A DNA stretch of 64,000 nt from Burkholderiaceae bacterium (GTDB lineage Bacteria; Pseudomonadota; Gammaproteobacteria; Burkholderiales; Burkholderiaceae_C): the NCBI GenBank assembly GCA_041905785.1, contig JAYRKJ010000005.1, positions 188,319 to 252,318 on the forward strand, read 5' to 3'. Position 1 is the first letter of the stretch; every line of letters begins with the position of its first letter. Under the pieces are notes generated by a model. The model had not been told where the DNA came from, searched no databases, and was given only the letters and a program-made list of their open reading frames with translations. A program made the position numbers and the translations under genes. This document shows positions 3 to 19,024 of the stretch, piece by piece.

Positions 3-548
3 GCCGAGGTCGGCTTCGAAGTCACCAAGGCCGACTGGGACTTCAGCGCGGTGCTCTTCCACAACAAGGTCCGCGACCTGATCGTCGCGGTCTACCAGCC
101 GGCCGGTCCCTCGCGCGAGTGGCAGAACGTCGCGCAGGCCAAGACCCATGGCATCGAACTCAACGGCAGCTGGAACCTGAACCGTGCCTGGAGCCTCAAG
201 GGCAGCCTCACCGCGCTCAAGGCCGATTTCACCGACGCCGGCGGCCAGACCGTGAAGCTGGAGTTCCGTCCGGAGCAAAAGCTGATGCTCGGGCTGAACT
301 GGGCGCCCACCGAAGCGCTCAAGCTCTTCGTCGACCTGAACTACGTGGGCAAGCAGTACTTCGAGACCAAGCAGCTGCCTGGCTATGCGCGCGTCGATCT
401 GGGCGCTTCCTGGCGCCTGAGCCAGCCCTGGACGCTGCGCGCAGGCGTCAAGAACCTCGGCGATGTCCGGCTGAAGGACAAGAACGAGAACTTCGTGGCC
501 GCTGAGCTGGGGCGCAATCTGTATCTGGCGGCGAACTACGGCTTCTGA
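3..548 (+). CDS. TonB-dependent (siderophore) receptor, C-terminal part; 5' end outside window
   Basis: Open frame from window edge; beta-barrel pattern, DLGASW and GVKNLGD motifs, ends GRNLYLAANYGF with C-terminal Phe. Confidence 0.9.
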   Translation, partial: AEVGFEVTKADWDFSAVLFHNKVRDLIVAVYQPAGPSREWQNVAQAKTHGIELNGSWNLNRAWSLKGSLTALKADFTDAGGQTVKLEFRPEQKLMLGLNWAPTEALKLFVDLNYVGKQYFETKQLPGYARVDLGASWRLSQPWTLRAGVKNLGDVRLKDKNENFVAAELGRNLYLAANYGF

Positions 549-611
549 GCAGCGCCGTGAGGGCTGGCGTGCACCCGAGCTTGGGGTGCACGTCGGATGG
601 GGAGAAAAAAA

Positions 612-896
612 GTGAGCGTGCTGTTCTATCTCGGGCTCTGGGCCGCCATGGGGCTGGTCTACCTGTCCAATGCGCACCAGCGCCTCCTGGCACTGCCGCT
701 GCCCGCGCGCGGCGCACGCATGGGCGCTGCGGGTCTGGCGAGTCTCGCGCTGGCGGGCGGCTGGCAGACGATGGGAGCCGCGGTGACCTGCTTTGGCGGC
801 TTGGCCTGGACCCTGCTGTGGGCTGGGCTGTGGCCGCTGGCGGGCACGCTGCTGAGCCTGGTCCACGATGGCCAATGGGGAGGGCTGGAACCATGA
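612..896 (+). CDS. small membrane protein (DUF3325-like) of PepSY-TM iron-release operons
   Basis: Hydrophobic ~94 aa ORF; GTG at 612 follows GGAG RBS; sits between receptor and PepSY gene. Confidence 0.6.
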   Translation: MSVLFYLGLWAAMGLVYLSNAHQRLLALPLPARGARMGAAGLASLALAGGWQTMGAAVTCFGGLAWTLLWAGLWPLAGTLLSLVHDGQWGGLEP

Positions 897-1183
897 AGCC
901 ACTCATCCGGCGGGACTGGTGGCTCAAGAGCCTGTCCGGCACCGTGCTCGGCGCGACCCTGGCCCTGGCGCTGGCCGGCCTTTGGGCCTGGTGGGGTCCG
1001 GGCGGCATTCGCGCGCAGGACAAGGTGCAGTTCACGATGTGGATGATTGCGCCGCTGTGGATGCTGGCGCTGTCGGCCGTGTACTTCATGCGCTCCGGCG
1101 CGCGGGCGCTGCTGCTGCTGCTGGTCCTGAACGGGCTGGCTCACGGCGCCCTGCAGTGGACAAAACAGGCGGCGGGCGCATGA
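893..1183 (+). CDS. small 3-TM membrane protein of PepSY-TM iron-release operons
   Basis: ATGA overlaps with both neighbours; MKPLIRRDWWLKSLSGTVLG..., hydrophobic. Confidence 0.65.
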   Translation: MKPLIRRDWWLKSLSGTVLGATLALALAGLWAWWGPGGIRAQDKVQFTMWMIAPLWMLALSAVYFMRSGARALLLLLVLNGLAHGALQWTKQAAGA

Positions 1184-2808
1184 AGGTCTCCAGCGATCTG
1201 ATCAAGGTGCACAAGCGCCTGCACACCTGGGTCGGCATCACGGCCGGCTGGCTGTTGTTCGTGGCCTTCTTTGCGGGCGCTTTGACCATGTTCAAGGAAC
1301 CCCTGGACCGCTGGGTCCGCGCCGGCAGCGAACCCGTTCGCGAGGCCTGGGCGCAGCCCCTGGACGATGGGCTGATCCCCGAAATGCTCGCCCGCCAGCC
1401 CAAGGCCGGGGCCGAGTTCACCGTGCATCTGCGTCCGGCCGAGCACCGCCCGGCCCCCATCAGCGGGCCGCACCAAACCGATCCAGAGGGCCCCGGCGCG
1501 TCCGTCGCGCCCTGGGTGGCTGGCCGCAACACTGCCGGCCGGCTGCAGATCTGGCAGCAGCCGCCTTCGGTGCTGGGCGAGCTGGTGGACCTGCTCCACC
1601 GCACCGGCGGCGTGCCCGGCACCCTGGGCGACGAGCATCTGGGCGTCTACCTGATGGGCGTGGCCGCGGTGCTCTACTTCCTGGCCCTGGTGTCCGGCGT
1701 GGTGGTGCTGCTGCCGACCCTGGTGAAGGACTTCTTCGCCATCCGGCCAGGCGCCAACCGCAAGCGCTTCTGGCTGGACTTTCACAATGTGCTGGGCATC
1801 ACCAGCCTGCCCTTTCACGTGGTGATCAGCCTGACCGCCATCGTGTTTGCCTTTCATGACCAGTTCTATGGCGCCCTGCGGGAGGTGGTCTATGGCAGGC
1901 AGCCGATGTTTTCGCCGCCGGCGCTGAGCCTGCCGGTGCAGCCCGGTGCACCCCTGCTGCCCCTGTCACAGCTGCTGAAGCGCGTCCAGGACGAGGCGCC
2001 CGGCTTCGAACCCACCGAGCTGCTGTTCATGCGCAGCACCGGTCCGCGCGCCATGGTCCGCGTGGCCCTCTCGCATCCCGACGCGCTGGTCCACGGGCCG
2101 CGCAGCGCCTACCTGCTGCTGCAGCCGCAAACCGGCGAGCTGCTCAACAGCAGCATGCTGCCCGGCCGGGAAAGCCCCTGGAGCCTGCCCGTCAACACCT
2201 TTTTTGCCCTGCACTTCGGCAGCTACGGCGGCGAGACCATCCGCTGGACCTATTTCGTCATGGGGCTGATGGGCGCCGCGCTGTTCTACACCGGGAACCT
2301 GTTGTGGCTGGAGTCGCGGCGCAAGCGCCAGCCGGCCGGCCAGCCGCAGCCGGAGCAGGCCCGCAGCGTGCGCTGGCTGGCGGCCGGCACGGTGGGGACT
2401 TGCCTGGGCTGCCTGCTGGGCGTGCTCGCGGCGCTCGCGGTGGGCAAGCTGAGCCGGGGCGGCGGTGCGCATGCCGAGCCGCTGTACCTGTGCGCCTATT
2501 ACGGCACCTGGCTGGCCTGCCTGGCCTGGAGCTTCTGGCGCGGAGCGGCGCGCGCAGCACCGCTGCTGTTGAGCGCCTGCACGCTGGGCGCCTCGCTGCT
2601 GCCGGTGCTGTCGCTGCGCAGCGGCAGCGGGCTGCTGGCAGGCCTGACGGGCGGGCACTGGGGCCTATGGATGGTGGACGTCGTCGCGCTGCTGGCAGCC
2701 CTGGCCTTTGCGGCGATGGCCTGGCGGACGCGGCAGCGCGTGCGGCTGGCGGCTCCGGACACGATCTGGTCCCTGGCCGGCCCGGTGGCGCAAGCCCAGA
2801 GGACTTGA
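1180..2808 (+). CDS. PepSY-associated TM helix protein (FoxB-like ferrisiderophore reductase)
   Basis: LHTWVG, LHRTGG, WLDFHNVLG and LHFG His-bearing TM motifs; ATGA-coupled start at 1180. Confidence 0.85.
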   Translation: MKVSSDLIKVHKRLHTWVGITAGWLLFVAFFAGALTMFKEPLDRWVRAGSEPVREAWAQPLDDGLIPEMLARQPKAGAEFTVHLRPAEHRPAPISGPHQTDPEGPGASVAPWVAGRNTAGRLQIWQQPPSVLGELVDLLHRTGGVPGTLGDEHLGVYLMGVAAVLYFLALVSGVVVLLPTLVKDFFAIRPGANRKRFWLDFHNVLGITSLPFHVVISLTAIVFAFHDQFYGALREVVYGRQPMFSPPALSLPVQPGAPLLPLSQLLKRVQDEAPGFEPTELLFMRSTGPRAMVRVALSHPDALVHGPRSAYLLLQPQTGELLNSSMLPGRESPWSLPVNTFFALHFGSYGGETIRWTYFVMGLMGAALFYTGNLLWLESRRKRQPAGQPQPEQARSVRWLAAGTVGTCLGCLLGVLAALAVGKLSRGGGAHAEPLYLCAYYGTWLACLAWSFWRGAARAAPLLLSACTLGASLLPVLSLRSGSGLLAGLTGGHWGLWMVDVVALLAALAFAAMAWRTRQRVRLAAPDTIWSLAGPVAQAQRT

Positions 2809-2811
2809 CCG

Positions 2812-4137
2812 ATGCCCGTCGACGTCCCCTCGTCCGTCATGGCCTGCCTGCAGTCCGTGGCCCCGGCGCATGAGCCCGGCTCTGCGCCCTGGTGGCAGGC
2901 CGTCTCGCGCGTGGGCACACCGCTGCGATGGGCCGGCGAGCCTGGCGAGCTTGGGCAGAGGGAGCTGCTGTTCCTTTGGCGCCAGCCACCCAGCGCGCCG
3001 GCGCCGGCCGTGGTTTGTATCGACGTGGACGGGCATACGCCCCATCCCACCGCGGGGGCCACCCGCATGCGGCGGCTGCCGGGGACCGATGTCTGGTACT
3101 GGCCCACCCGCTTGCCCGAGAACTGGCTGGGCAGCTATGCCTTCATGCCGATCGCCCCGAACTGGCCAGCCGAACCCGCCACGGCCCCCGAGCGGCGCGC
3201 ATGGTGGATGGCATCCATGCAGGCGTTTGGCCAGGCTGATCCCTTCAGCCCGCATCCCGCCGCGGCGGATGGCTGGGGGCAGCCCAGGGCGGTGCTGCGC
3301 GAGGGCGTCGGCCTGTCGGTGCTGAGCGGGCAGGGCGGCCCCGACAGCGGCGGCATCCCCGCCGGCCGCCTTCGCCAGTGGACCTGGGCCAGCCGCCTGC
3401 TGGGCTGCACGCGCTCGGTCTGGCTCCATCAGACCGTGGGCCCCGCGCCAGCGTCCGGCCAGCGCGCGTGGGTGCTGCTGCTGGATGGCCAGGCCTGGGC
3501 CGGTCCCCTGCAGCTCTTCCCCTTGCTGGACCGCATGACCGCACGGCGGCAGCTGCCCGCCGCGAACTACCTGGCCATCGACGCCCGGGACCCGGCGTCG
3601 CGTCGGCAGGACATGGCCTGCCAGGACCGCTTCTGGCAGGCCCTTCATGAGGAGGCCTGGCCTGCCGCCTGGCGCGTCGCGCTGCAGGACGGCTCGGTGT
3701 CGGGGCCCTCCGCCTGCGAAACGCCCTGCCTGGTGGCCGGCCAGAGCCTGGGCGGTCTGGCGGCCAGCTACGCCGCCTTGCATTGGCCGCGCCGCTACCC
3801 GGCACTGCTGAGCCAGTCCGGCGCCTTCTGGTGGCCCGAGCTGGACGAGGGGCCGGAACACGCCTGGCTGATCCGGCAGGTCCGCGGCGGGCTGGGACGG
3901 CGGCTGAACCTGCGGGCACGCTTCCAGTACGGCGAGCGCGACCCCGAGGACATGCAGCGCTTGAGCCGGCAGATGGCCCAGGCCCTGCGTTCCCAAGTGC
4001 TCAGCCCGGCGGCGGTGCGCGCCCAGCAAGTGAAGGGCGGTCACGACTGGACGTGCTGGCGCGAGGCGCTGCTGGCAGGTCTGGCCGACTTGCTGCCGAC
4101 CCTGTGCGAGCCTCGCGGCCCCTGCCGCACTGAATGA
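2812..4137 (+). CDS. fes: ferric catecholate (enterochelin) esterase
   Basis: GQSLGG nucleophile motif, SQSGAFWW, GGHDWTCW; DUF3327-like N-terminus; directly upstream of mbtH and NRPS. Confidence 0.88.
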   Translation: MPVDVPSSVMACLQSVAPAHEPGSAPWWQAVSRVGTPLRWAGEPGELGQRELLFLWRQPPSAPAPAVVCIDVDGHTPHPTAGATRMRRLPGTDVWYWPTRLPENWLGSYAFMPIAPNWPAEPATAPERRAWWMASMQAFGQADPFSPHPAAADGWGQPRAVLREGVGLSVLSGQGGPDSGGIPAGRLRQWTWASRLLGCTRSVWLHQTVGPAPASGQRAWVLLLDGQAWAGPLQLFPLLDRMTARRQLPAANYLAIDARDPASRRQDMACQDRFWQALHEEAWPAAWRVALQDGSVSGPSACETPCLVAGQSLGGLAASYAALHWPRRYPALLSQSGAFWWPELDEGPEHAWLIRQVRGGLGRRLNLRARFQYGERDPEDMQRLSRQMAQALRSQVLSPAAVRAQQVKGGHDWTCWREALLAGLADLLPTLCEPRGPCRTE

Positions 4138-4182: not shown

Positions 4183-4401
4183 ATGACATCCCAGAGCTCG
4201 GGAACGATCAACCCATTCGACGACGAAAGCCACCGCTTCACGGTCCTCGTGAATGCACGCGGCGAGCACAGCTTGTGGCCTGAATTCGCCGCTGAGCCAA
4301 TGGGTTGGCTGCGCGCTCATGGGCCGGATTCGAGAGACGCCTGTCTGCGCTGGGTGGATACCCACTGGACGGCCATGCAGAACGCTGCGGCGTCGCGCTG
4401 A
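4183..4401 (+). CDS. MbtH-like protein (YbdZ-type)
   Basis: NPFDD...VLVNARGEHSLWP...P.GW...W..HWT signature. Confidence 0.95.
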   Translation: MTSQSSGTINPFDDESHRFTVLVNARGEHSLWPEFAAEPMGWLRAHGPDSRDACLRWVDTHWTAMQNAAASR

Positions 4402-4410
4402 GGGATGGCC

Positions 4411-7400
4411 ATGAACAACCGCGCTCCCTCGCTTGAGCTTCGATCCAAGGATCATCCGCGCAGTGCAGCCCGGGAAGTACCGCCGTTGCCTGCCAGCAGT
4501 GCCCCTCAGCCCAGCGACGGGACGCCGCAGGAAGCAGCACTCGCGCTGCCGCTGGTCGCCGCCCAGCCTGGCATCTGGATGGCCGAACAGGTGGCTGACC
4601 AGCCCGGGTCGGCCTACACCATCGCACATTGCGTCGAGCTGAGCGGGCCGCTTGATGCGGCCGCCATGACGCAGGCCATGCGCCAAGGCCTGGCACAAGC
4701 GCAGACCCTGCATGCGCGCTATGAAGACCGTGGCGACGGCACCGTGCTGCAGCACCTGCCCTCGGCCGTGCATCCGGATGAGGTGCGGGTGCCCGATCTG
4801 ATCGATCTTCGCGACTCGCCCGAAGCCGCGGCCCAGGCGCAGGCCCAGGCCTGGATGGCGCAGGACATCGGACAGGCCAGGGCGCTGAGCGACCCGCGAC
4901 AGGCCTACCGCCACGCCCTGATCCGCATGCCGGATCGCCAGGGGCAGGCGTGCTGGTGGTGGTACCTGCGCTGCCATCATCTGGCGCTGGATGGCTACAG
5001 CCTCAACGCCGTGACGCGACAGATCGCGGCGCTTTACAGGCGCGGCATGGGCGGTGGAGAACCGGACGCCGCGCCCTGGGTCGGCACCGAGGCCGTGGTG
5101 CAGGAATACCAGGCCTACGAGGCGTCGCCAGCCTTCGACGCCGACCGGCGCTTCTGGGCTGAGTACGGCGCAGCGCTCCCCGCTGCGCAGGGGCTCGCGG
5201 CGCGCCCGCTGGGCGATGACGCGCCCACACCGCAGGTGCTGCTGCAGGACCTGGCACTGCCGCTGGAGCGCATGGAGGCCCTGCGCGGCCTGATCGAGTC
5301 CGATGAGCGGGCCCGCAAGGCGCGGCTGACAGCCGCCGACCTGATCCAGGGCGCCATGGCCGCCTACCTGGGGCGCTGGATCGGCCTGGACCTCGTGCTG
5401 GGCGTTCCTTTCATGCGGCGCCTGGGCTCGGTCGCCCTGCAGGCGCTGGTGCCGGTCGTCAACGTCCTGCCGGTACGCGTGCAGCTCGACGCCGGCATGG
5501 ACTGGGTGGCCGTCGCCATGACCATGAAGCAGGCGCTGCAGGTCGTCCGCCCGCACCAGCGCTATGCGGCGGAGCAGATCCAGCGCGACCTGCATCGCCT
5601 CGGAGCCGGCCAGCGCCTTTACGGGCCGGTGCTGAACCACAAGCTCTTCGATCTGGAACTCGACCTGGGCGACGTGCGGGGCAGGGCCCGGCATCTGGCC
5701 ACCGGCCCGGTGGACGATATCGAGATGAGCCTGATGGTGCACGCGGACCGCGTTCAGCTGGAACTGCGGGGCGCCGTCGGCCGCTACGACGCGGCCGAGC
5801 TGGCGGCCCATGCGCAAAGGCTGTCGCAATGGCTGGACGCCTGGGGCAGGCAGCCCGATCTGAAGCTGCGGGACTTGCCCTGGTGCACGCCGCAGGAGCT
5901 GGTGCGCATCCAGCATTGGTCTACCGGGCCGCAAGTCGACGCGCCTGAGTCCTGGCATTTCACGCGCCGGCTGGAAAGCCAGGCCGCGGAGCACCCGCTG
6001 GAGACGGCGGTGGTCTTCCGCGACGAAGCGCTGAACTACGCCGAGCTGCTGGCCCGCGTGCGCACCCTGGCCGACTGGCTGCGCGGCCAAGGTGCCCGGC
6101 GCGGCGAGGTGGTGGCGCTGGCGCTGCCGCGCAGCATCGACGCGCTGGTCGGCCTGCTCGCCGTCATGGACAGCGGCGCCGCCTTGCTGCCCCTGGACCT
6201 GGACTACCCGGCCGAACGCCTGGGCTGGATGTGCGACGACGCCCGGCCGCGCATGGTGCTCACGCACAGCGCCGTGCCTGCGGTGTCCCCGGAAGGCCTG
6301 CGCCGCGTGGACCTGGATGACCCGCAACTGCTGCGGCAACTGGCGGCGCGCGCCGGCGCAGGCGACGCCGGCAGTAGCCGCGAGGGCGACGGCCCCCGGC
6401 CGGAGGACGTGGCCTACATCATCTTCACCTCCGGCAGCACCGGGCGTCCCAAGGGGGTGCTCAACACCCACGGTGCGCTGATGAACCTGCTCGAGGCGCA
6501 CCGCGCAAGTTTGTATGAGCCCGCGCTGAGCGCAGTGGCGCAACGGCACGGACGGCGCCTGCGTGCCGCCCACACGCACTCCTTCTCCTTTGACTCGTCC
6601 TGGATCCAGCTGCTGTGGCTCACCCAAGGGCAGGTGCTGCACCTGATGGACGAAGACACCCGGCGCGACGCGCACGCCCTGGTCGCCGACATCCGCCGGC
6701 ACGCGCTGGATGCGCTGGACCTGCCGCCGTCCTTCCTGGCTCAGATGATGAGCGAGGGGTTGTTCGAGCCGGGAGCGCACCATCCCACCCTGGTGCTGAT
6801 CGGCGGCGAGGCTGCGCCCGCGGCGCTCTGGCAGCAGTTGCGCGCCGTGCCGGCGCTGCAGGCGCACAATCTTTACGGCCCGACGGAAAACACGGTGGAC
6901 ACGCTCAGGGCCGATGTGGCGAGGCATGAGTCCCCCGTCGTTGGCCGCCCCATCGCAGGGGTGCAGGTCCGGGTGCTGGACGCCTGGCTGCGACCCGTGG
7001 CGCAAGGCGCTGTGGGCGAGCTGTACATCGCCGGCGCCGGCTTGGCGCGCGGCTATCTGGCGCGTCCGGGGCTCACGGCCAGCCGCTTCGTGGCGGATCC
7101 CTTCGCAGCTGCGGGCTTGGCCTCGCGCATGTACCGCACCGGAGACCTCGTGCGCTGGAACGCGCAGGGCCAGCTGGAATACCTCGGCCGCAGCGATGAC
7201 CAGGTCAAGGTGCGGGGCTACCGCGTCGAACTGGGCGAGATCGAGAGCGCATTGTCGCTGCTGCCCGGCGTGCAAAGCGCCGTCGTCCTGCCGCAGACCC
7301 TGCATGCCACCCAGCGCCTGCTGGCCTACTGCGTGGTGCCGGGGCTGGACGACGCGCAGCGGCTGCGGCGCGCCGCGGAGCTGCGCGCGCAGCTGCGCGA

Positions 7401-10400
7401 ACGCTTGCCCGAGTACATGGTGCCCGCCGCCTTGACGGTGCTGGACAGCTTCCCTCGCAACGTCAGCGGCAAGATCGATCGCCAGCGCCTGCCGGCGCCG
7501 CAGTTCGAATCCTCTGTGTCCCAGCCTGCGACGCCGCATGAAGCGCTGCTCTGCGCTGCGATGGCGCAGGTCCTGCAGCGCGAGGCCATCGGCCCGGAGG
7601 AGGATTTCTTCCAGCAGGGTGGCGACAGCATCTCGGCCATCATGCTGTGCACGGCCTTGCGCCGCCAGGGATGGGTGCTGACGCCGCGCCAGGTCTTCAT
7701 GCACCCGCGGCCGCAGGCCTTGGCCACGCTGCTCCAGCCCCTGGACGCGGAAGCGGATGCCACGCCGGGCCAGGCCTGGTCGCCAGCCGCCGAGCTGCGC
7801 GAACGGCTTGCCGCACGGCATGGCGACTTCGCTGCCGCGCTGCCCCTGCTGCCGCTGCAAAAAGGCATGCTCTTTCACACCCTGCTGGCCCTGGACCAGG
7901 CCGCGGGCGCCCATGCCACACATGCCATCCATGGCGCCTACGCCGCATTCACCCGGCTGCGCCTGGAGGGCCCGCTGGACATCGACCGGCTGCGCCAGTC
8001 CCTGGATGCCGCACTGCGCCGCCATCCCCAGCTCGCCGGCCTGTTCGACGTGCAGGCGGACGCCGAGCCCGTATTTCTGATGCCTGCCCAGGCCGACGCC
8101 CTGCACTGGCCCTGGCAGCTGCACGACCTCAGCGGTCTGCCCGACGATGCGCAAGCGCCGGCGCTGGCGGCGCTGCAGGGACGGCTGCTGAGCCAGGGCT
8201 ACTCCCCGCTGCGTTGGGGCGGCATGATCCAGGCCGCCCTGGTCCGGCATGGCGCGACGCGTCACAGCCTGCTGATGATGGTGCACCACCTGGTCATCGA
8301 CGGCTGGTCCAGCCCCGTGCTGCTGCGCGACCTGCTCGACGCGTATCGCGCCAACACGGCACGGCTGCCGGCCCTGTCGCGCAGCTATGCGGACGTGATG
8401 GTCCAACTGGCGGGAAGAACGCTGGACGAGAGCCGGGCCTGGTGGCGCGAGGCCGTGCCAAAGCTGACACCCACGCTGCTGTGCGAAGGCAAGCCGCCGC
8501 AGGGTGCGGTGCGGGAGCACAGCCTGCGCCTTCCCGAGCCGCTGGCCGAGTCCCTGCGCCAGGCCCTGCGCGAGCGCGGCCTCACCCTGCATGTGCTGAT
8601 GCAGGGGCTCTGGGCGCTGGCCCTGTCGGCCATGACCGGACGCGACAGCGTGGTGTTCGGCACGCCGGTGTCCGGGCGCAGCACTGCCGTGGAGGGCATT
8701 GCGGAGCAGGTCGGTCTTTTCCTCAACACGCTGCCGGTGGAGGTCTCGCTGCGCCAGGACCAGGCGCTGTGGCCCCAGCTGGAGGCCCTGCAGCGCAGCC
8801 ACGCCGAGCGCATGGCGCACGATGGCGTGGGGCTGGCCGAGATCCAGCAGATGGCCGGCGGCCCGCTGTTCGACACCTTGCTGGTCGTGGAGAACTACCC
8901 GGACAGCGACTACCTGACCGAGGCACTGCCCGGCGCCGGCGCCGCGGCAGGTGAAGAGGGTCAGGTCTTGCGCGTGACCGAGGTCCACAACCGCGGCACC
9001 AGCCACTATCCGCTGGCGCTGCTGGTCCTGCCGGGCGATGGGCTGACCCTGCTGCTGGAGGACCGTGGCGTGCTGACCGACGGTCAGGCGCTGCTGGAGC
9101 GGCTGGCTCGGTGGATCGGCCTGCTGCTGGAGCAATCGTCGCTGCCGCTGTGTCGCTATCCGCTGCAGGTGTCGCGTGAAGGCCGGCTGCTGCAGGCCAT
9201 CAATGACACCGACCATCCCGTGCCCCGCCACACGCTGCGCTCCTGGCTGGACGAGCAGGCCCGGCGCAATCCGGACGCCCCGGCCCTGATCGACGAGGCC
9301 CAGCGCCTGAGTTACGCCGAGGTCCGTCACCAGGTCCGCGTCCTGGCGGGCGAGCTGCAGGCCAGGGGCGCAGGCCCCGGCGGCATCGTGGCCGTGGCCC
9401 TGCCGCGTTCGGTGCGCCTGAGTCTGGCCCTGATGGCCGTCATCGAGGCCGGCGCGGCCTATCTGCCCCTGGATCTAAGTTATCCCGACGAGCGCCTGCG
9501 CTTCATGCTGGAGGACGCCGCGCCGGCGGTGCTGATCGCCGGCAGCGAGCAGCTCGCGCGCCTTCTTCCGGCGCCGCCGGACAGCCGCCCCGCGCTCCAG
9601 CCGCTGGTCTACGACGCCCTGCGGCCCGGCCATGAGGCGCCGGCGATCACCGTGGCGCTGCGCGCCGACGATCCGGCCTACCTGATCTACACCTCGGGCA
9701 CGACCGGCCGCCCCAAGGGCACGCTGGTGAGCCACCGAGCCATCGTCAACCGCATTGCATGGATGCAGGACGCCTACCCCTTGGGCCCTCAAGACGTGGT
9801 GCTGCAGAAGACGCCGTGCGGCTTCGACGTCTCCGTGTGGGAATTCTTCTGGCCGCTGCTGGTGGGCGCACGCCTGGTGATGGCGCCGCCGGACAGCCAC
9901 AGGGATCCGGCGGCCCTGCAGCAGTTGATCGAGCGGCACCGCGTCAGCTGCCTGCATTTCGTGCCGTCGATGCTGGCCGTGTTCAACGAGCATCTGGGCA
10001 CCCAGGACACCACCCGTGTGGCGCAGGCCTGCGCCAGCCTGCGTCTGGTGTTCTGCAGCGGCGAGGCCCTGCCGACAGCCCTGGCCCGGGAGGTTTCGCT
10101 GCGGCTGCCGGCAGCGCTGCACAACCTGTATGGCCCCACCGAAGCCGCCGTGGACGTCAGCTACCACCCGGCTCACGCTGAGGGGCTGGCGCAGCAGGGT
10201 CCCGGCGTTCCCATAGGCAGGCCGGTGTGGAACACGCAGCTGCTGGTGCTGGACCGCTGGCTGCGGCCGGTACCGCTGGGTGCCGTGGGCGAGCTCTATC
10301 TTGGCGGTGTGCAGCTGGCCCTGGGCTATCTGGGGCGCCCGGCACTCACGGCCAGCCGCTTTGTGGCCAGCCCCTTCGGCGATGGCGAGCGCCTCTACCG

Positions 10401-11880
10401 CACCGGCGACCTGGTGCGCTGGCTGCCCGGCGGGGCGCTGGAGTACCTGGGCCGCGGCGACGACCAGCTCAAGCTGCGCGGCCAGCGCATCGAACTGGGT
10501 GAGATCGAGCAATGCCTGATGGCCCAGCCCGGGGTTGCGCAGGCGGCCGTTCAGGCCATGGTGCTGTCATCGGATGCGGCCAGCGGCGATCAGCGCCAGC
10601 TGGTGGCCTATCTGGTGCCCGAGGGCGATGCGCTGCCGGACGCCGAAGTCCTGCGCCACGCGCTCAGCCGCGCCCTGCCGGCCCACATGGTGCCGGTGAG
10701 CTACCAGTGCCTGGCGGCCTTGCCGCTGAGTCCCAACGGCAAGCTGGACCGGCGCGCGCTGCCCAGGCCGGTCCTGGCGGCGGGGCCAGGTCTTGCCTCC
10801 CGCGCACCGGCCCTCGGACTGGAAAGCCGGCTGGCCGAGGCCTTTGCCCGTGTCCTGGGTCGCGAGGCCATCGGTGCCGACGACGACTTCTTCGCACTGG
10901 GCGGCCATTCCCTGATGGCCATGCGCCTGGCCGCCGAGATCCGCCGCACCCTGCAGCGGCCGGTGGCCGTGGGCCAGATCATGCTGACGCCGACCATTGC
11001 CGGCCTGGCGCAAGCGCTGCAGCAGGAAGTGATGCTCAACGACTTCGGCAGCGACGGCTTCGCCCCCGTGCTGCGCCTGCGTGAAGGAAGCACGGGGGCG
11101 GAGGCGCCGCTGTGGTGCTTCTATCCGGGCTCTGGCTTCGCCTGGCAGTACGCGGTGCTGGCCCGTCACATCCGCAGCGGCCAGCCGGTGCTGGGCCTGC
11201 AGTCGCCGCGGCCCGCCGGCCTCATCGCCAGCAGCCGGGACATGGACGAGCTGATCACGGCCCAGTTGGCGCTGATCCGCGAAATCCAGCCGCAAGGCCC
11301 CTACGACCTGCTTGGCTACTCGCTGGGCGGCACCGTGGCCTATGGCGTGGCGGCAAAGCTGAGGGAGGCCGGCGAGACGGTGCGCTTCCTCGGGCTGCTG
11401 GACACCTATCCGGCCGAGGTGCACGACTGGTCCGACCCCCAGGGCGCCGAAGCGGCCCTGGGCGCCGAGCGCGAGCAGACGCAGGTGCTGGACCAGGCCT
11501 TCGCGGGCGAGCCTTTGGGTGACGAGGACCCGGCGGAGGCTGCCGAGCTGCAGGCCCTGATGCAGCGCGAGAAGCAGGCCATGCTGGCGCAGATCTTCGC
11601 CAACTACCAGGACGCCGTGCGCCTGCTCTCGCGCGCACGCACCCCGCGCTATGACGGCCGGGTGACGCTGTTCGTCGCCGAGCGCTCGCTGCCGGCCTAC
11701 ATCCACCCCGAGCGGGACTGGTCCGGCCTCGCCGCGCAGCTGGACCTGCACCGGCTGCCCGACTGCAGTCATGAGGACATTCTTTCCCCGCAGCGGCTGC
11801 AAACGCTGGGCCCCTTGATCGACCGCCTGCTGCACGACGCCCACGCCCAGCCGGCAACTCAGAACCGCAAGGACAACTGA
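4411..11880 (+). CDS. two-module siderophore NRPS, C-A-T-C-A(Ser)-T-TE (EntF/TnbF/FreF-like)
   Basis: HHLALDG and HHLVIDG C motifs; two A domains; GGDS and GGHS T domains; GYSLGG TE; A2 code reads DVWHFSLVDK (Ser); start 4405 or 4411. Confidence 0.95.
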
Positions 11881-11881
11881 T

Positions 11882-13159
11882 ATGAGCAACGCTTCTTCCA
11901 AGCCACGGACCGGCCTGGACTGGGGACTCCTGGCCAGGAATCCCCATTTCCGCCACGTCTTCATCGCCCGCACCATCTCGCTGCTGGGACTGGGCTTCCT
12001 CTCGGTGGCCGTGCCCTTGCAGGTCTTCCAGCTCAGCGGCGACAGCGCTGCCGTCGGGCTGGCGATGGCGCTGGAGGGCGCCGGCATGTTCGCGGGCCTG
12101 CTGGCGGGCGGCGTGCTGGCGGACCGCCACGACCGCAAGCGCCTGATCCTGCTGGCCCGCGCCGCCTGCGGCCTGGGATTCCTGGGCCTCGCGCTCAACG
12201 CCTGGGCAGCCAGCGCCTGGCCCCGGCCGCTGGTGCTGGCCCTGGTGTACGGGCTGGCGGCCTGGGATGGGCTCTTCGGCGCCATCGGCGTGACCGCGCT
12301 GTTGGCGGCCATGCCCCAGCTGGTCGGCCGCGAGAACTTGCTGCAGGCCCGCGCCATGAGCATGCTGAGCATGCGCCTGGCCACCGTGGCATCGCCGGCG
12401 CTGGGCGGCCTGCTGATCGCCGCCTGGGGCGTGGGCTGGAACTACCTGCTGGCCGCCCTGGCCACCGGCCTGACGCTGCTGCCGCTGCTGCGCCTGCCGC
12501 CCATGCGCCCGCCTGCCGCGGACGACAGCCATCCGCTGCGCGCCCTGGCTGACGGCCTGCGCTATCTGGTGCGCAACAAGGTGGTGGCCAGCGTGGTGCT
12601 CGTGGGCAGCCTGGTCAGCTTCACCACGGCGGTGCGCGCCCTGTTTCCGGCCCTGGCGCAGCAGGCCTATGGTGGCGGCGCGCTGGAGCTGGGCTTGATG
12701 TACTCCGCCGTACCGCTGGGCGCGGCGCTGTCCGCCGCCCTGAGCGGCTGGGCTGAACGGCTGGAGCGCCCGGGCCTGGCCCTGCAGTGGCTGGGGCTGG
12801 CCGCATTTGCCTGCCTGCTGGCCCTGGGCCTCAACGGTTCCTTCGTCCTCGCGCTGCTCCTGCTGGCGCTGTTCGGTGGCCTGGTGTCGCTGGCCGGGCT
12901 GCTGCAGTACGCGCTGGTGCAGGGGCACACGCCGGATGCCTACCTCGGCCGCGTCAACGGTCTGTGGAGCGCGCAGGACGCCTTGGGCGACTCCATCGGC
13001 ACCGTGGCCATCGGCCTGCTGGCCCAGACCCTGTCGCCCCTGGGCGGCGTGGCCGCACTCGGCGGCGCAGGCCTGGCGCTCGGACTCTGGGCGCTCACCA
13101 GCCTGCCCCGGCTGCGCAGGGCTGCTGCCGAAGACACCGCGCTCCAGGCGCAACCCTGA
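11882..13159 (+). CDS. entS: catecholate siderophore MFS exporter
   Basis: HFRHVFIARTISLLGLG, GGVLADRHDRKRLILLAR, YLGRVNGLWSAQ; 12-TM pattern. Confidence 0.9.
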   Translation: MSNASSKPRTGLDWGLLARNPHFRHVFIARTISLLGLGFLSVAVPLQVFQLSGDSAAVGLAMALEGAGMFAGLLAGGVLADRHDRKRLILLARAACGLGFLGLALNAWAASAWPRPLVLALVYGLAAWDGLFGAIGVTALLAAMPQLVGRENLLQARAMSMLSMRLATVASPALGGLLIAAWGVGWNYLLAALATGLTLLPLLRLPPMRPPAADDSHPLRALADGLRYLVRNKVVASVVLVGSLVSFTTAVRALFPALAQQAYGGGALELGLMYSAVPLGAALSAALSGWAERLERPGLALQWLGLAAFACLLALGLNGSFVLALLLLALFGGLVSLAGLLQYALVQGHTPDAYLGRVNGLWSAQDALGDSIGTVAIGLLAQTLSPLGGVAALGGAGLALGLWALTSLPRLRRAAAEDTALQAQP

Positions 13160-13177: not shown

Positions 13178-14413
13178 ATGTTGACTCCCACCCGAAGGAC
13201 CGAGGCCGTCAGCCCGTCCGGTACCCGACGCGTCGAGCAGGACGCAGCCGGACTGAGCGCCGAGTTCGTGTTCAGCTCGCCCCACCGCAGTCTGCTGGCT
13301 CGAGGCTGCCTGGCGCGCATCGAAAGCCCCGTGCATGAGCGGGCGCGAGAGGACGATGCCAGACAGTCGGCGTTTCTGAAGACCGTGCAGGCCGCACTGG
13401 ACCTGGCGCGCAAGAAGGGCCAGCGCCATCCGGTCGTCCTGGGCGCCATTCCCTTTGACACGCGCCAGCCTTCGGCCCTGGTGGTGCCGCAGGAGGTCGA
13501 GTTCATCGACCGCGAGGCCTTGATGGCGCGGGCACGGGTCTCGCCTCTGCAGGCACGCGTCGCAGCCGCGCGCAGCATTCCCGACCAGCAGTGCTTCAAG
13601 CAGGGCGTGCGGCAGGCCATCGCCAACTTCCAGCACAGCTGCATCCGCAAGGCCGTGCTGTCGCGTCTGTGCGAGATCGAGCTGGAGCAGCCCGTGGACA
13701 TCGAGGGGCTGCTGGCCAACCTCATGGTGCAGAACCCAGCGGCCTACCACTTCAGGCTGCCCATGGGCGACGGCTCGGCGCTGCTCGGCGCCAGCCCCGA
13801 GCTGCTGCTGCGCCTGCAGGGCCGGCAGGTGGAGACTTTTCCGCTGGCCGGCACCGCGGCGAGGCAGGCATCGGCCGCCGATGACGAGGCCGTGGCGCAG
13901 CGGCTGCTCGCTTCAGGCAAGGATCTGCACGAGCACCGCCTGGTGGTGGAGGACATCCAGCAGCGCCTGCGACCGCTGTGCGACGCGCTGGAGGTGCCGC
14001 CCGGGCCGGCCCTGGTGTCCACGCCCCATCTGTGGCACCTGGGCACGCCCATCGCCGGCCAACTGAAGGCAGGCGCCACCGCGCCGCTGGCCGCGCTGGA
14101 CCTGGCCTGCCTGCTGCATCCCACGCCCGCGGTCTGCGGGTTCCCGCGCCTGCAGGCCAGCAAGCTGGTGCACCTGATCGAACCTTTCGAGCGCGGCCCT
14201 TTCACCGGCATCGTGGGCTGGTGCGACGCCGAAGGGCAGGGCGAATGGGTGGTCACCATCCGCTGCGCCACCGTGCTGGCGCGCCGGCTGCGGCTCTTTG
14301 CAGGCGTGGGCGTGGTGGAGGCCTCCTGCCCCGATGCCGAGTGGGCGGAAACGCAAGCCAAGCTGGGCACCATGCTGCGCGCCATCGGCCTCGGTCCGGA
14401 GGTGCTGGCATGA
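13178..14413 (+). CDS. entC: isochorismate synthase
   Basis: KAVLSR, GASPELL, PLAGT, KDLHEH, LHPTPAVCG, FTGIVGW, FAGVGVV MST-family motifs. Confidence 0.93.
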   Translation: MLTPTRRTEAVSPSGTRRVEQDAAGLSAEFVFSSPHRSLLARGCLARIESPVHERAREDDARQSAFLKTVQAALDLARKKGQRHPVVLGAIPFDTRQPSALVVPQEVEFIDREALMARARVSPLQARVAAARSIPDQQCFKQGVRQAIANFQHSCIRKAVLSRLCEIELEQPVDIEGLLANLMVQNPAAYHFRLPMGDGSALLGASPELLLRLQGRQVETFPLAGTAARQASAADDEAVAQRLLASGKDLHEHRLVVEDIQQRLRPLCDALEVPPGPALVSTPHLWHLGTPIAGQLKAGATAPLAALDLACLLHPTPAVCGFPRLQASKLVHLIEPFERGPFTGIVGWCDAEGQGEWVVTIRCATVLARRLRLFAGVGVVEASCPDAEWAETQAKLGTMLRAIGLGPEVLA

Positions 14414-16107
14414 GCGCGACACCATGCGTGACGCAGGCGAAGCAGCCGTCGCGTCGCATCGAGTTCACGCCCTGGCCGGCCGAGCTGGCGCGCCGCTACC
14501 GCAGCGAGGGTTACTGGCTGGACCGGCCACTGCTGGCGCTGCTGGAGGACGGCCATGCCGCTCAGGCGGGGGTGGCATCGGCCGCGCCGGCGCTGATCTG
14601 CGGCGATCGGCGGTTCAGCTATGGCGACATGGCCGCGGCCGTCGAGCGCCTGGCCGCCAGCCTTTGGGCGCGCGGGCTGCGTGGCCATGACACCGCACTG
14701 GTCCAACTGCCCAACGTGGCGGAGTTCTACCTCGTCTTCTTCGCCCTGCTGCGCATCGGCGTGGTGCCGGTCAACGCCCTGTTCAGCCACAAGCGGCATG
14801 AACTCAGCGCCTATGCCGCGCAGGTCCGCCCGAGCCTGCTGATCGCCGACCGCAGCCATGACTTGTTTGCCGATGAGGGCTTTGCGACCTCGCTGCGGCA
14901 GGAGAACCCGCAACTGCAGCACCTGCTGCTGCGCGGCGAGCCCACGGGACCGCACAGCCTGGACGAGGCAATGGCAGCGGCGCTGCCGGCGAACTGGCCC
15001 GGCGATGCCGCGCCGACGCCGCCTGAGGATGTGGCTTTCTTCCAGCTCTCCGGCGGCAGCACCGGCACGCCCAAGCTGATCCCGCGGACCCACAACGATT
15101 ACGACTACAGCGTGCGCCGCAGCGCGCAAATCTGCCGCTTGAACCCGCAGACGCGCTACCTCTGCGCCTTGCCGGCCGCGCACAACTTCCCGCTGAGCTC
15201 GCCGGGCGCGCTGGGCGTCTTTCACGCCGGCGGCTGCGTGGTGCTGGCCGGCAGCCCGGAGCCCCTGGCCTGCTTCGAGCTGGTCGAGCGCCACCAGGTG
15301 ACGATGACGGGGCTGGTGCCCTCGGCCGTGTCGCTGTGGATGCAGACCGTGCAGGGCGATCCGTCGCGGCGCTCCCAGCTGCGGACGCTGGCGCTGCTGC
15401 AGGTGGGCGGCGCCAGCTTCGCCGAGTCGCTGGCGCGGCGCGTGCCCGAACTGCTGGGCTGCCGGCTGCAGCAGGTCTTCGGCATGGCCGAAGGGCTGGT
15501 GAACTACACGCGGCTGGACGATGACGAGGCCCGGGTCATGGGCACGCAGGGCCGGCCCATGAGTCCGGCCGACGAGGTCGAGGTGCGTGATGCCGATGGT
15601 GTCCCGCTGCCGCCGGGAGAAGTGGGCCTGCTGGCCACGCGCGGCCCTTATACCTTTCGCGGCTACTACCGCAGCCCGGAGCACAACCTGCGCGTTTTCG
15701 ACGCCCGCGGCTTCTACAGCTCCGGCGACCTCGTCCGGCGCCTGCCGGACGGCTATTTGTGCGTGGTCGGTCGGGTCAAGGACCAGATCAACCGCGGGGG
15801 CGAGAAGATCGCCGCCGAGGAGATCGAGGAACTGCTGCTGCGCCATGCCGACATCCAGCAGGTGGGCGTTGTCGCGCTGCCCGACGAGCGCCTGGGCGAG
15901 AAGAGCTGTGCCTGCTTCGTGAGCGACAGGGCGGATCTCAGCGCCGCGCAGCTGCGCCGTTTCCTGCGCGAGCAGGGCGTGGCGGACTACAAGGTGCCGG
16001 ACCGCTTCGAACGCCTGCAGGCGCTGCCGCTGACCGCCGTCGGCAAAGTGGACAAACAAGGCCTGCGTGCCCTCGTTCTGGCCGAGCCATTCCCTTCCAA
16101 GACCTGA
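14410..16107 (+). CDS. entE: 2,3-dihydroxybenzoate-AMP ligase
   Basis: FQLSGGSTGTPKLIPRTHNDY, HNFPLSSPG, QQVFGMAEGL; ATGA overlap with entC. Confidence 0.95.
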   Translation: MSATPCVTQAKQPSRRIEFTPWPAELARRYRSEGYWLDRPLLALLEDGHAAQAGVASAAPALICGDRRFSYGDMAAAVERLAASLWARGLRGHDTALVQLPNVAEFYLVFFALLRIGVVPVNALFSHKRHELSAYAAQVRPSLLIADRSHDLFADEGFATSLRQENPQLQHLLLRGEPTGPHSLDEAMAAALPANWPGDAAPTPPEDVAFFQLSGGSTGTPKLIPRTHNDYDYSVRRSAQICRLNPQTRYLCALPAAHNFPLSSPGALGVFHAGGCVVLAGSPEPLACFELVERHQVTMTGLVPSAVSLWMQTVQGDPSRRSQLRTLALLQVGGASFAESLARRVPELLGCRLQQVFGMAEGLVNYTRLDDDEARVMGTQGRPMSPADEVEVRDADGVPLPPGEVGLLATRGPYTFRGYYRSPEHNLRVFDARGFYSSGDLVRRLPDGYLCVVGRVKDQINRGGEKIAAEEIEELLLRHADIQQVGVVALPDERLGEKSCACFVSDRADLSAAQLRRFLREQGVADYKVPDRFERLQALPLTAVGKVDKQGLRALVLAEPFPSKT

Positions 16108-16115
16108 GAGATTCC

Positions 16116-17000
16116 ATGAGCATTCCTGCCCTTTCTTCTTATCCCATGCCGGCCACCGCGGACTTTCCGAAGTCCAAGGTGTCCTGGCCGCTCCAGTCCT
16201 CGCGTGCCGTACTGCTCGTGCATGACATGCAGGACTACTTCCTGCGCAGCTACGGCGAGCAAAGCCCGCTGCGCGACACCCTGCTGCAGCGCTTGCAGGC
16301 CCTGCGCGACTGGGCCCATGCGCGACAGGTGCCGGTGGTCTACACCGCGCAAGCCGCGGAGCAGGCCCCGCAGGACCGTGCCCTGCTGAACGACATGTGG
16401 GGGCCGGGCCTGACCGCCGCCGACCCGGCGCTTGCGGCGATCGCCGCCCCTCTGGCGCCGGCCGCCAGCGACGTGGTGCTATGCAAATGGCGCTACAGCG
16501 CCTTCCAGCGCTCGGACCTGGCCGCGCTGATGCGTCGGTGGGGCCGCGACCAGCTGCTCATCGGCGGCGTGTATGCGCACATCGGCTGCCTGATGACGGC
16601 GGTCGAGGCCTTCATGCAGGACATCCAGCCCTTCATGGTGGGAGATGCGGTGGCGGACTTCTCGCTCGAGGAACATCAGATGGCGCTTCGCTACGTCGCC
16701 GGGCGCGCGGGCCGGGTGATCAGCAGCGCGGATGTCCTGGCGCTCGACGCCGAGCCCCTGAGCTGGGAACGCTTCAAAGCCAGCGTGCTGGAGCGCCTTC
16801 CCGAAGGGCAGGGTGGCCTGCAGGACGACGACAACCTGCTGGACTTCGGGCTGGACTCCGTGCAGCTGATGGAGCTGATCGCCACCTGGTCGCGCCAGGG
16901 CGTGAAGCTGAGCTTCGAAGCCCTGGCCCGCAGCCCCAGCCTGCGCGCCTGGCGGGCGCTGCTCAGGCAGGTACAGGCGCCTGCAGGGGAGCCGGCATGA
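16116..17000 (+). CDS. entB: isochorismatase / aryl carrier protein
   Basis: [25 protein letters not shown]; C-terminal Ar[14 protein letters not shown]. Confidence 0.95.
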
Positions 17001-17767
17001 ACGCCTCTGGCTTCAAGGGCCGCGTGGTCTGGGTGAGCGGCGCGGGCAGCGGCATTGGCCGTGCCGCGGCACAGGCCTTCCACGATGCCGGCGCGCGCGT
17101 GCTGGGACTGGATCGCCGCTTCGACGAAAGCGGGCCTGAAGGCCAGGCACCCGCTTACGAGACCCTGGTGCTGGACCTCAGCCAGCCCGAGGCCGTGGCG
17201 CGCTTGTGCCGTGATCGGCTGGCGGCTCAAGGGCGCATCGACGTGCTGGTGCATGCCGCGGGCATCCTGCGCATGGGGCGCACGGACGAGTTGAGCCTGG
17301 ACGATTGGCAGCAGAGCCTGCAGGTGAACGCCTCGGCGGCATTCCATCTCTTCCATGCGTTGGTGCCGCAATTCAAGAAGCAAGGGCAGGGCGCCATCGT
17401 CGTGCTCGGCTCCAATGCGGCCCATGTTCCGCGCGTGGGCATGGCGGCCTATTGCGCGTCCAAGGCGGCCCTTCGAAGCCTCAGCCAGTGCGTGGCACTG
17501 GAGCTGGCACCCTTTGGCGTGCGCTGCAATCTCGTGTCACCCGGCACCACGCGCACGCCGATGCTGCAGGCCATGGGCATGGACGAGGCAGGCATCCAGC
17601 GCACCATCGAGGGCCTGCCGGTGCAGTACAAGCTGGGCATTCCGCTGGGCAAGATCGCCGAGACCCGGGACGTGGTGGACGCTGTCCTCTTCCTGGCCTC
17701 GGAGAACGCCGGACACATCACCCTGCACGACCTGCTCGTGGACGGTGGCGCCACCCTGGGAGCATGA
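16997..17767 (+). CDS. entA: 2,3-dihydro-2,3-dihydroxybenzoate dehydrogenase
   Basis: SDR GAGSGIG and YCASK; SNAAHVPR; KLGIPLGKIA; DGGATLGA. Confidence 0.95.
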   Translation: MNASGFKGRVVWVSGAGSGIGRAAAQAFHDAGARVLGLDRRFDESGPEGQAPAYETLVLDLSQPEAVARLCRDRLAAQGRIDVLVHAAGILRMGRTDELSLDDWQQSLQVNASAAFHLFHALVPQFKKQGQGAIVVLGSNAAHVPRVGMAAYCASKAALRSLSQCVALELAPFGVRCNLVSPGTTRTPMLQAMGMDEAGIQRTIEGLPVQYKLGIPLGKIAETRDVVDAVLFLASENAGHITLHDLLVDGGATLGA

Positions 17768-18901
17768 ATGGACACCAAGCTCAGAACGGACCGGCCCGAG
17801 CGGCCGCCGGCGCAGGACCGGTCGATGCGGCCGCCGCAGGTCCTGCCATCACCGCTTCAGCTGCGCCAGCAGACAGACGCCCCGGATCGCGAGGGGCTGG
17901 CTCTGATCGGCACGAGCCGCGCCCGCATTCGCCAACTGCTGCAGGGCCAGGATGACCGGCTGCTGGTGGTCATGGGCCCGTGTTCCATCCATGACCCACG
18001 CGCTGCGCTGGAGTACGCCAAGCGCCTGGCGCGTGAGCGCGACCGGCGCGGCGGCGAGCTGGAGCTGGTCATGCGCGTCTACTTCGAGAAGCCGCGTACA
18101 ACGGTGGGTTGGAAGGGCCTGATCCAGGACCCCTGGCTCGACGGCACGGGACAGCTGCACGAAGGGCTGTTCCTGGCCCGCCAGCTGCTGGTCGACATCA
18201 ACCGCCTGGCGCTGCCTGCCGCGACGGAATTCCTGGATCCCTTGGTGGCGCCTTTCGTGGAGGACCTGGTGAGTTGGGGCGCCGTGGGGGCGCGAACGAC
18301 CGAAAGCCAGACCCATCGCGAGATGGCTTCGGGTTTGCCCATGCCGATCGGATTCAAGAACGGCACGGACGGGAACGTGCGCATTGCCTGCGACGCGATC
18401 GAGGCGGCCTCCGTGCCGCACCACCGCCTGGCCCTGCATCCTGCCGGCAGTGTGGTGGCCCTGCGCACCAGGGGCAATCCCGACGGCCACCTGATCCTGC
18501 GCGGCGGACTGGAGCCCAACTACCAGGCCGGTCCCGTGGCGCAAGCTTGCGAGGCCTTGAGGAAGCGGGGGCTGCCGACGCGCCTGGTGGTGGACTGCAG
18601 CCATGGCAACAGCAGCAAGCAGCATGAACGGCAGCGGCTGGTGGCGGCAGACGTTGCTGCGCGCATCGCGGCAGGCGAGCGCCATGTTTGCGGCCTGATG
18701 GTGGAGAGCCACCTGAAGGCCGGCAGCCAGCCCTTCGTCGCCGGCCTTCACAAGGCCGATGCGCTGGTCTACGGGCAAAGCATCACCGATGGCTGCCTGG
18801 ACTGGCCATCCAGCCTGGAGCTGCTGGACGAGCTGCAGACGGCGGTGATCGCCCGCCGTTCGCTGCGCCGGACGCAGGGTCTGAACTTGACGGGCGCATG
18901 A
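17768..18901 (+). CDS. DAHP synthase, class I-alpha (siderophore-cluster copy)
   Basis: GPCSIHD, YFEKPRTTVGWKG, GARTTESQTHR, GFKNGT, DCSHGNS, SITDGC. Confidence 0.93.
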   Translation: MDTKLRTDRPERPPAQDRSMRPPQVLPSPLQLRQQTDAPDREGLALIGTSRARIRQLLQGQDDRLLVVMGPCSIHDPRAALEYAKRLARERDRRGGELELVMRVYFEKPRTTVGWKGLIQDPWLDGTGQLHEGLFLARQLLVDINRLALPAATEFLDPLVAPFVEDLVSWGAVGARTTESQTHREMASGLPMPIGFKNGTDGNVRIACDAIEAASVPHHRLALHPAGSVVALRTRGNPDGHLILRGGLEPNYQAGPVAQACEALRKRGLPTRLVVDCSHGNSSKQHERQRLVAADVAARIAAGERHVCGLMVESHLKAGSQPFVAGLHKADALVYGQSITDGCLDWPSSLELLDELQTAVIARRSLRRTQGLNLTGA

Positions 18902-18964
18902 CGGAGCAAAGCATGGCCATGTGATTTGCTTTGCATCTAATGCCAGTTTCTCAATTGCCGTAAC

Positions 18965-18979
18965 TGAGGCTCAATCTCA
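18965..18979. promoter_or_regulatory. candidate Fur-like 7-1-7 box upstream of second DAHP synthase
   Basis: TGAGGCT-C-AATCTCA; 9/14 to TGATAAT-N-ATTATCA and similar to the ftrA box; 45 nt before ATG. Confidence 0.33.
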
Positions 18980-19024
18980 TTCACTCGCTGGCCTGGAGGA
19001 CAGCGATGCTGAAGGAGATGTGAC

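Follow-up and report, generated by a model that had tools for sequence, protein, structure and literature searches.

Which amino acid separates 2,3-dihydroxybenzoate (DHB) from serine in the product of a two-module catechol synthetase lacking an epimerization (E) domain, and in which configuration is it built in? The question is raised by a nonribosomal peptide synthetase (NRPS) gene within a 64,000-nucleotide stretch of a Burkholderiaceae bacterium genome (GenBank assembly GCA_041905785.1, contig JAYRKJ010000005.1, positions 188,319 to 252,318, forward strand). This whole stretch is referred to here as the window, and coordinates are those of the window unless otherwise stated. A preliminary description of the sequence had assigned the enzyme to the family that makes (DHB-cationic amino acid-Ser)n catechols and had inferred a basic spacer residue. 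The analysis presented here supports that assignment and sharpens it: the locus is, with good confidence, a turnerbactin/pseudodubactin-type cluster whose first adenylation domain (A1) most likely accepts ornithine (Orn), a substrate that we infer by homology to characterised relatives. The cluster most likely represents a known pathway in a new host and not new chemistry.

The synthetase is encoded by a single intact gene:

4405 to 11880, plus strand: NRPS of 2491 amino acids (aa), with a starter condensation domain (Cstarter), A1 (DSIDLGLVDK), carrier domain T1, second condensation domain C2, A2 (DVWHFSLVDK, Ser), T2 and thioesterase (TE), read from the open reading frame (ORF), Pfam and motifs; alternative start at 4411

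The database copy of this protein uses the start at 4411, two codons later, and is 2489 aa long. Pfam recognised two Condensation, two AMP-binding and two PP-binding domains and one Thioesterase domain, while in NCBIfam module 1 was matched by MxcG, and module 2 together with the TE by EntF. The motif HHxxxDG is found only at residues 191 and 1294, the latter being the C2 motif HHLVIDG (8284-8304). In T1, GGDSI begins at residue 1072 (7618-7632), and because its spacing to HHLVIDG is only about 220 residues, there is no space for an E domain. As positive controls we used the E-containing synthetases of Serratia montpellierensis (2853 aa) and Sphingomonas folli (2890 aa), each of which has three stretches of the Condensation family and one more HHxxxDG, the third, between T1 and C2, corresponding to the E domain. 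The domain counts, the motif positions and these controls bear out the C-A-T-C-A-T-TE order without an E domain between T1 and C2 that had been proposed earlier. All catalytic motifs of the enzyme are intact (HHxxxDG twice, A3/A7/A8/A10, GGDSI, GGHSL and GYSLGG). The N-terminus of C2 (residues ~1156-1167, 7870-7905) is His-rich and about nine residues longer than the family consensus LFHAQLxxGxxAGxYNAF.

The ten Stachelhaus positions were taken from the core motifs and verified by alignment. In A1 they fall on residues 730, 731, 734, 772, 798, 800, 823, 831, 832 and 1023 and read DSIDLGLVDK, whereas A2 reads DVWHFSLVDK, a Ser code identical to that of EntF and to the published module 2 code of TnbF, the turnerbactin synthetase. 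The same extraction applied to Enterobacter EntF as a control returned DVWHFSLVDK. Both codes agree letter for letter with those given in the preliminary description, but its claim that the A1 code is unusual was not confirmed. We compared A1 with 127 two-module homologues (2000-2600 aa) obtained from two protein searches, a set in which the window enzyme is counted twice (P0001 and its database copy, P0002). DSLDLGLVDK was present in 118 of the 127, one conservative change (L239I) away from the window code. Minority codes were DSVDAGLVDK in three Microbulbifer sequences and DSVDVGLVDK, DSADGGLMDK and DSLDLGMVD- once each; outside the window, DSIDLGLVDK itself appeared in this set in one unrelated metagenomic sequence. 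Positions 235, 236, 278, 301 and 331 did not vary among the homologues, and the acidic pocket residues D278 and D331 were invariant in all 128 aligned A1 rows. As all three congeners with an orthologue have Leu at 239, Ile239 is private to the window strain. The A1 code thus departs from the usual code of its family by a single conservative change and is no oddity. A full-text literature search did not find DSLDLGLVDK, and A-domain codes are absent from the supplements of two Butler-lab papers.

Organisms carrying these homologues include Betaproteobacteria (Roseateles, Mitsuaria, Zoogloea, Janthinobacterium, Duganella, Pseudoduganella, Rugamonas and Massilia-like strains), Gammaproteobacteria (Cellvibrio, Microbulbifer, Marinomonas, Acinetobacter and Solimonas) and, among Alphaproteobacteria, many Azospirillum species; Teredinibacter was not among the matches listed in a protein search seeded with the Cellvibrio homologue. 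The earlier framing of such enzymes as coming mainly from Gammaproteobacteria was overstated, since they are common in Betaproteobacteria and a characterised Burkholderiales example exists. In an A-domain tree, the window A1 fell inside a strongly supported clade of 18 rows (100/95) that consists solely of E-less synthetases with codes DS[L/I/V]D[L/A]GLVDK and includes Pseudoduganella, Azospirillum, Microbulbifer and Cellvibrio. The A1 domains of Serratia and Sphingomonas (both E-containing) and of Ruegeria, with codes DxEDxG[Y/A]VDK, were placed just outside it. The Methylocystis, Microbulbifer, Azospirillum, Serratia and Sphingomonas loci used here and below came from the matches listed in a scan of genome contigs with generic NRPS motifs; most of the listed matches were NRPSs of actinobacteria.

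Two-module NRPSs with DSLDLGLVDK and Ser codes were also seen in Acinetobacter nosocomialis (P0229, from a cluster of 886 member sequences) and A. corruptisaponis (L005), which implies, as far as the codes can tell, a DHB-Orn-Ser type catechol in that genus; the best database match of TnbF in 2013 was an A. baumannii protein.

The host is a Roseateles/Mitsuaria species and thus a betaproteobacterium, as had been stated before: GTDB places its genome in one genus with Roseateles sp. DB2 and Mitsuaria sp. WAJ17. Distribution of the synthetase is patchy: four of the eight species in the genus have an orthologue, and the 33 other genera sampled from the order have none. One of the three congeneric orthologues is an 82% homologue, and the others are those of strains DB2 and WAJ17. 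Other Roseateles genomes (G002:C21, G006:C6 and G004:C145), and not the window genome, hold further NRPS A domains that are 47-49% identical to the A1 pocket region; the one that we read has the Gln-like code DAQDLGVVDK and is part of a different multi-module NRPS. A 2848-aa NRPS of Roseateles sp. DB2 was considered as an E-containing catechol relative and rejected, as the piece that we read has this same Gln-like code and is from an unrelated multi-module NRPS.

The ornithine assignment draws on three bodies of published chemistry. Turnerbactin of Teredinibacter turnerae T7901 contains L-Orn and L-Ser, as determined by NMR and Marfey analysis, and the published A1 code of its synthetase TnbF is DSDDGGLVDK (PMC3795760). 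TnbF resembles the window enzyme in its C-A-T-C-A-T-TE order without E, in a C2 that resembles domains joining a D-configured donor to an L-configured acceptor (DCL) and in its A2 code DVWHFSLVDK. The comparison with TnbF, proposed in the preliminary description, gave eight of ten identical A1 positions, the TnbF code being that of the paper and not read from the sequence; the shared skeleton is DS-D-GLVDK, with I239 and L299 in the window and D239 and G299 in TnbF. In Burkholderiales, the order to which the window genome also belongs, the pdb cluster of Pseudoduganella sp. D-3-1 directs the synthesis of DHB-Orn-Ser oligomers, according to high-resolution tandem mass spectrometry, knockout and heterologous expression; dimers and DHB-Orn-Ser-Ser were reported and the trimer was not seen (PMC13442633). 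The pdb architecture and accessory genes are like those of the window, and all three Pseudoduganella orthologues that we read, as well as four Azospirillum brasilense NRPSs, have DSLDLGLVDK. The siderophore of A. brasilense contains DHB, Orn and Ser in equimolar amounts, according to Bachhawat and Ghosh (1987) as cited in PMC3795760. This compound, spirilobactin, comes from an alphaproteobacterial host, its structure was never solved and its link to the NRPSs is inferred, but these enzymes combine DSLDLGLVDK with a Ser code and their A1 domains are 57-58% identical to that of the window. Taken with the A1 clade, these products support a basic spacer and point to ornithine, and DSLDLGLVDK can reasonably be read as an ornithine code.

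Several points weigh against this reading. The chemistry on record comes from genera other than that of the window; the characterised PdbF of strain D-3-1 is linked to the window enzyme only through congeneric orthologues and not through its own sequence; and Ile239 replaces a Leu found in nearly all relatives. Nor are 239 and 299 fixed for Orn, given the other residues that TnbF has there. With the classical Gln code, DAQDLGVVDK, the window A1 agrees at seven of ten positions. On paper, the DCL-like C2 and the T1 motif GGDSI argue for a D-configured donor, and no canonical Fur box was seen in the operon or just upstream of it.

One alternative concerns configuration: the product might be DHB-Orn-Ser with D-Orn, as in mediterraneabactin, generated by cryptic epimerisation through C2 or a trans-acting enzyme. 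The class of C2 was judged from its ranking against solved structures, not from a reference-labelled phylogeny, and its best matches were of the DCL type (McyB, 163 bits; TycB1, 99; SrfA-C, 92), as against 58, 52 and 40 bits for TycC6, FscG and LgrA, classic domains that join an L-configured donor to an L-configured acceptor (LCL). C2 is also 43-45% identical to the C2 that follows the E domain in E-containing relatives. T1 carries GGDSI where T2 carries GGHSL, and GGDSI is typical of carrier domains working with an E domain. A dual epimerization/condensation (E/C) domain reportedly has, besides HHxxxDG, a second N-terminal motif, HH[I/L]xxxxGD. This possibility was rejected for C2, as residues 1141-1600 contain one HH motif only, the catalytic one, which argues against D-Orn. 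Nor was a racemase gene found in the cluster by Pfam and NCBIfam annotation of its genes.

Precedent also runs against D-Orn. TnbF has the same kind of DCL-like C2 and no E domain, and Marfey analysis gave only L-Orn (PMC3795760). Spacer chirality in triscatechol synthetases depends on whether an E domain is present: the E-less FreF and RucF yield L-Lys and L-Arg, respectively, whereas the E-containing CbsF and VabF yield D-Lys and D-Arg (PMC8480324, PMC11912440). All four make the same DHB-cationic amino acid-L-Ser oligoester scaffold as enzymes of the window type; they were set against the window by description and through likely representatives from Serratia, Sphingomonas and Ruegeria with E239 codes. 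D-Orn was given in the Pseudoduganella paper on the DCL label alone, a bioinformatic assignment on the same ground as that described above (PMC13442633). GGDSI and a DCL-clade C2 are kept in all E-less synthetases compared (those of the window, Azospirillum, Rugamonas, Microbulbifer and Methylocystis). This suggests that the E-less forms might have arisen by loss of the E domain from a CbsF/VabF-like ancestor, leaving both features as relics. We regard D-Orn as quite unlikely. L-Orn is the best prediction because of the TnbF, FreF and RucF precedents, the lack of a second HH motif in C2 and the lack of a racemase gene nearby.

A second alternative retains the scaffold and changes the residue, with A1 taking Lys, Arg or a diamino acid of shorter chain, for instance diaminobutyrate, to give a frederiksenibactin- or ruckerbactin-like compound or a new one. 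The window A1 does lie in a wider cationic clade (100/100) together with the E-containing Serratia and Sphingomonas synthetases, with which it shares D278 and D331, and one automated JGI annotation calls a homologue an L-arginine ligase. Moreover, Leu or Ile at 239 with L299 would make a smaller pocket than that of TnbF (D239, G299), so that a shorter side chain could be favoured. However, E239 together with Ala or Ser at 236 is found in the E-containing relatives and in those from Ruegeria (DSEDMGYVDK, DAEDLGYVDK and DAEDLGAVDK), all of which remain outside the 18-row subclade of the window, while the organisms with DSLDLGLVDK whose products are known make Orn-containing compounds. A Lys, Arg or diaminobutyrate spacer is accordingly, in our view, decidedly improbable.

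The last alternative, a neutral residue, either Gln (the nearest classical code) or Gly as in methylocystabactin, is highly improbable in view of the invariant D278 and D331 and of the Orn-containing products of relatives, even though the best single-domain solved-structure match of the window A1 is the DhbF-like 5u89, whose A1 accepts Gly. The Gly case has a published counterpart in methylocystabactin, (DHB-Gly-L-Ser)3, whose synthetase in Methylosinus and Methylocystis has the architecture of the window enzyme and an A1 of unpredictable specificity (PMC12435222). It also shares an orthologous C2 (44% identity) and GGDSI in T1, but its A1 differs: in Methylocystis silviterrae A1 reads DVGNFIVVEK, is 38% identical to the window A1 and is far from its clade. 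On the A1 tree and code a Gly spacer was rejected, and it is very unlikely in the window product. Within the presumed methylocystabactin synthetase of M. silviterrae (L008 5926-13158), A1 is sister to its own Ser-activating A2 and so is apparently the outcome of a Ser-domain duplication. Given this relationship and the low identity, the Gly solution would be a different, independent invention.

Ornithine in the L configuration, predicted by analogy with TnbF, FreF and RucF, thus remains the preferred reading. It is unlikely that the product is a new variant, which would be the case either if D-Orn were incorporated without an E domain, unlike in TnbF, or if L239I shifted A1 to another diamino acid. 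If true, this would be a new stereochemical or constitutional triscatechol variant, with an undescribed route to spacer chirality or identity.

Gene content and order place the locus in the same family. The siderophore genes form one tightly packed plus-strand operon with gaps of at most 48 bp, in which the following genes surround the NRPS gene:

3 to 548, plus strand: TonB-dependent siderophore receptor, 3' end (Pfam TonB_dep_Rec_b-barrel)
597 to 896, plus strand: small hydrophobic ORF 1, 99 aa, counterpart of the first small hypothetical protein of the tnb and pdb clusters
893 to 1183, plus strand: small hydrophobic ORF 2, 96 aa, with ATGA overlaps with its neighbours
1180 to 2808, plus strand: PepSY-associated transmembrane protein, 542 aa (Pfam PepSY_TM, 1.8e-53)
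2812 to 4137, plus strand: Fes-type enterochelin esterase, 441 aa (NCBIfam PRK10439, 275.6 bits, cut-off 222; Pfam Enterochelin_N and Esterase)
4183 to 4401, plus strand: MbtH-like protein, 72 aa (Pfam MbtH, 5.5e-22)
11882 to 13159, plus strand: EntS-type major facilitator superfamily (MFS) siderophore exporter, 425 aa (NCBIfam PRK10489, 495.8 bits, cut-off 324)
13178 to 14413, plus strand: isochorismate synthase EntC/DhbC (Pfam Chorismate_bind; TIGR00543, 291.7 bits, cut-off 224.75)
14410 to 16107, plus strand: 2,3-dihydroxybenzoate-AMP ligase EntE, code PLPGQGVVNK (NCBIfam PRK10946, 851 bits, cut-off 783)
16116 to 17000, plus strand: isochorismatase-aryl carrier protein fusion EntB (Pfam Isochorismatase and PP-binding)
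16997 to 17767, plus strand: 2,3-dihydro-2,3-DHB dehydrogenase EntA, a short-chain dehydrogenase/reductase (Pfam adh_short and adh_short_C2; position as EntA in strain DB2)
17768 to 18901, plus strand: 3-deoxy-D-arabino-heptulosonate 7-phosphate (DAHP) synthase, final gene of the operon, with a role in precursor supply (Pfam DAHP_synth_1, 9.9e-79; also after EntA in Roseateles sp. DB2)

The complete receptor gene encodes 652 aa with plug and barrel and begins 1411 bases before the window (L082 6590-8548); the receptor of Roseateles sp. DB2 also has 652 aa, and the siderophore gene order in that strain is exactly that of the window. A Pfam search assigned neither of the two small ORFs (99 and 96 aa) to a family, but counterparts occupy the same place elsewhere: 93, 82 and 87 aa for the first and 96, 98 and 100 aa for the second in DB2, Pseudoduganella violaceinigra and T. 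turnerae, respectively. Judging from its family, the PepSY_TM protein probably reduces the ferric siderophore at the inner membrane or takes part in its uptake. For comparison with the EntE code, the published code of TnbE is PLPAQGVVNK (PMC3795760). Two phosphopantetheinyl transferases (PPTases) of Sfp/EntD size are encoded elsewhere in the window genome.

The tnb cluster, from a marine gammaproteobacterial symbiont and not a betaproteobacterium, shares with the window the TonB-dependent receptor, the two small ORFs, PepSY_TM, esterase, MbtH, NRPS, EntS and entCEBA, with the PPTase likewise located elsewhere. It differs in that the window has no resistance-nodulation-division (RND) pump pair, has an extra DAHP synthase and carries entCEBA after the NRPS gene, whereas in tnb these genes precede it. 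Closer in host, P. violaceinigra has a locus whose genes are exactly those published for pdb, and a block of two small ORFs, PepSY_TM, Fes, MbtH, NRPS and MFS genes is collinear with the window. Protein identities between Pseudoduganella and the window are about 52-57% (59-62% for A1), and the A1 codes of the congeneric pdb orthologues are identical to the window code at nine of ten positions. Unlike the window operon, pdb includes RND pumps and a PPTase.

Beyond the operon, in the region from 18902-20110 onward, the window contains a second DAHP synthase. In Roseateles sp. DB2 (L090 24451-27398) the DAHP synthase gene closes the siderophore operon, and next to it come an ORF of 96 aa, a PNPOx-like gene and TetR, Csp and LuxR-type genes, which suggests that an insertion or expansion may have occurred 3' of the window operon relative to DB2.

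As for regulation, no 19-mer within six mismatches of the E. coli Fur consensus was found in the window, where matches with seven mismatches occur only from 37402 on, and the 8 kb upstream contained no 19-mer within seven mismatches. About 40 bp before the start of the receptor gene, however, an AT-rich 8-7-8 inverted repeat, CAAATGCG-TATGATT-CGCATTTG, is present in this 70% GC genome (L082 6538-6560, 1.4 kb before the window). Though not a canonical Fur box, the repeat is a candidate for an operator that serves all genes of the operon. Control by iron is predicted.

Based on these gene assignments, EntC, EntB and EntA would convert chorismate to 2,3-DHB, with the dedicated DAHP synthase feeding the pathway, and EntE would charge the aryl carrier domain of EntB with DHB. 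The starter C domain of the NRPS would then couple DHB to the A1 residue, most likely L-ornithine, A1 probably needing its MbtH partner, and C2 would couple DHB-Orn to the L-Ser that A2 loads. The TE would iteratively oligomerise DHB-Orn-Ser via serine esters and might release a dimer or trimer, linear or cyclic, to be exported by EntS. Recovery of the iron would fall to the TonB-dependent receptor and the Fes esterase, together with the PepSY_TM protein and both small membrane proteins.

The turnerbactin/pseudodubactin family was already described from Burkholderiales in 2026, and apart from its stereochemistry the window cluster is ordinary. The stereochemistry is a small point of interest for NRPS enzymology: E-less enzymes keep a DCL-type C domain and an E-type carrier motif, D-Orn has been inferred once, and the only Marfey data, those for TnbF, say L. 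For the family, the present locus extends the turnerbactin/pseudodubactin type to Roseateles/Mitsuaria. As DSLDLGLVDK is common to more than 100 synthetases in three proteobacterial classes, its reading as ornithine should be useful for cluster annotation.

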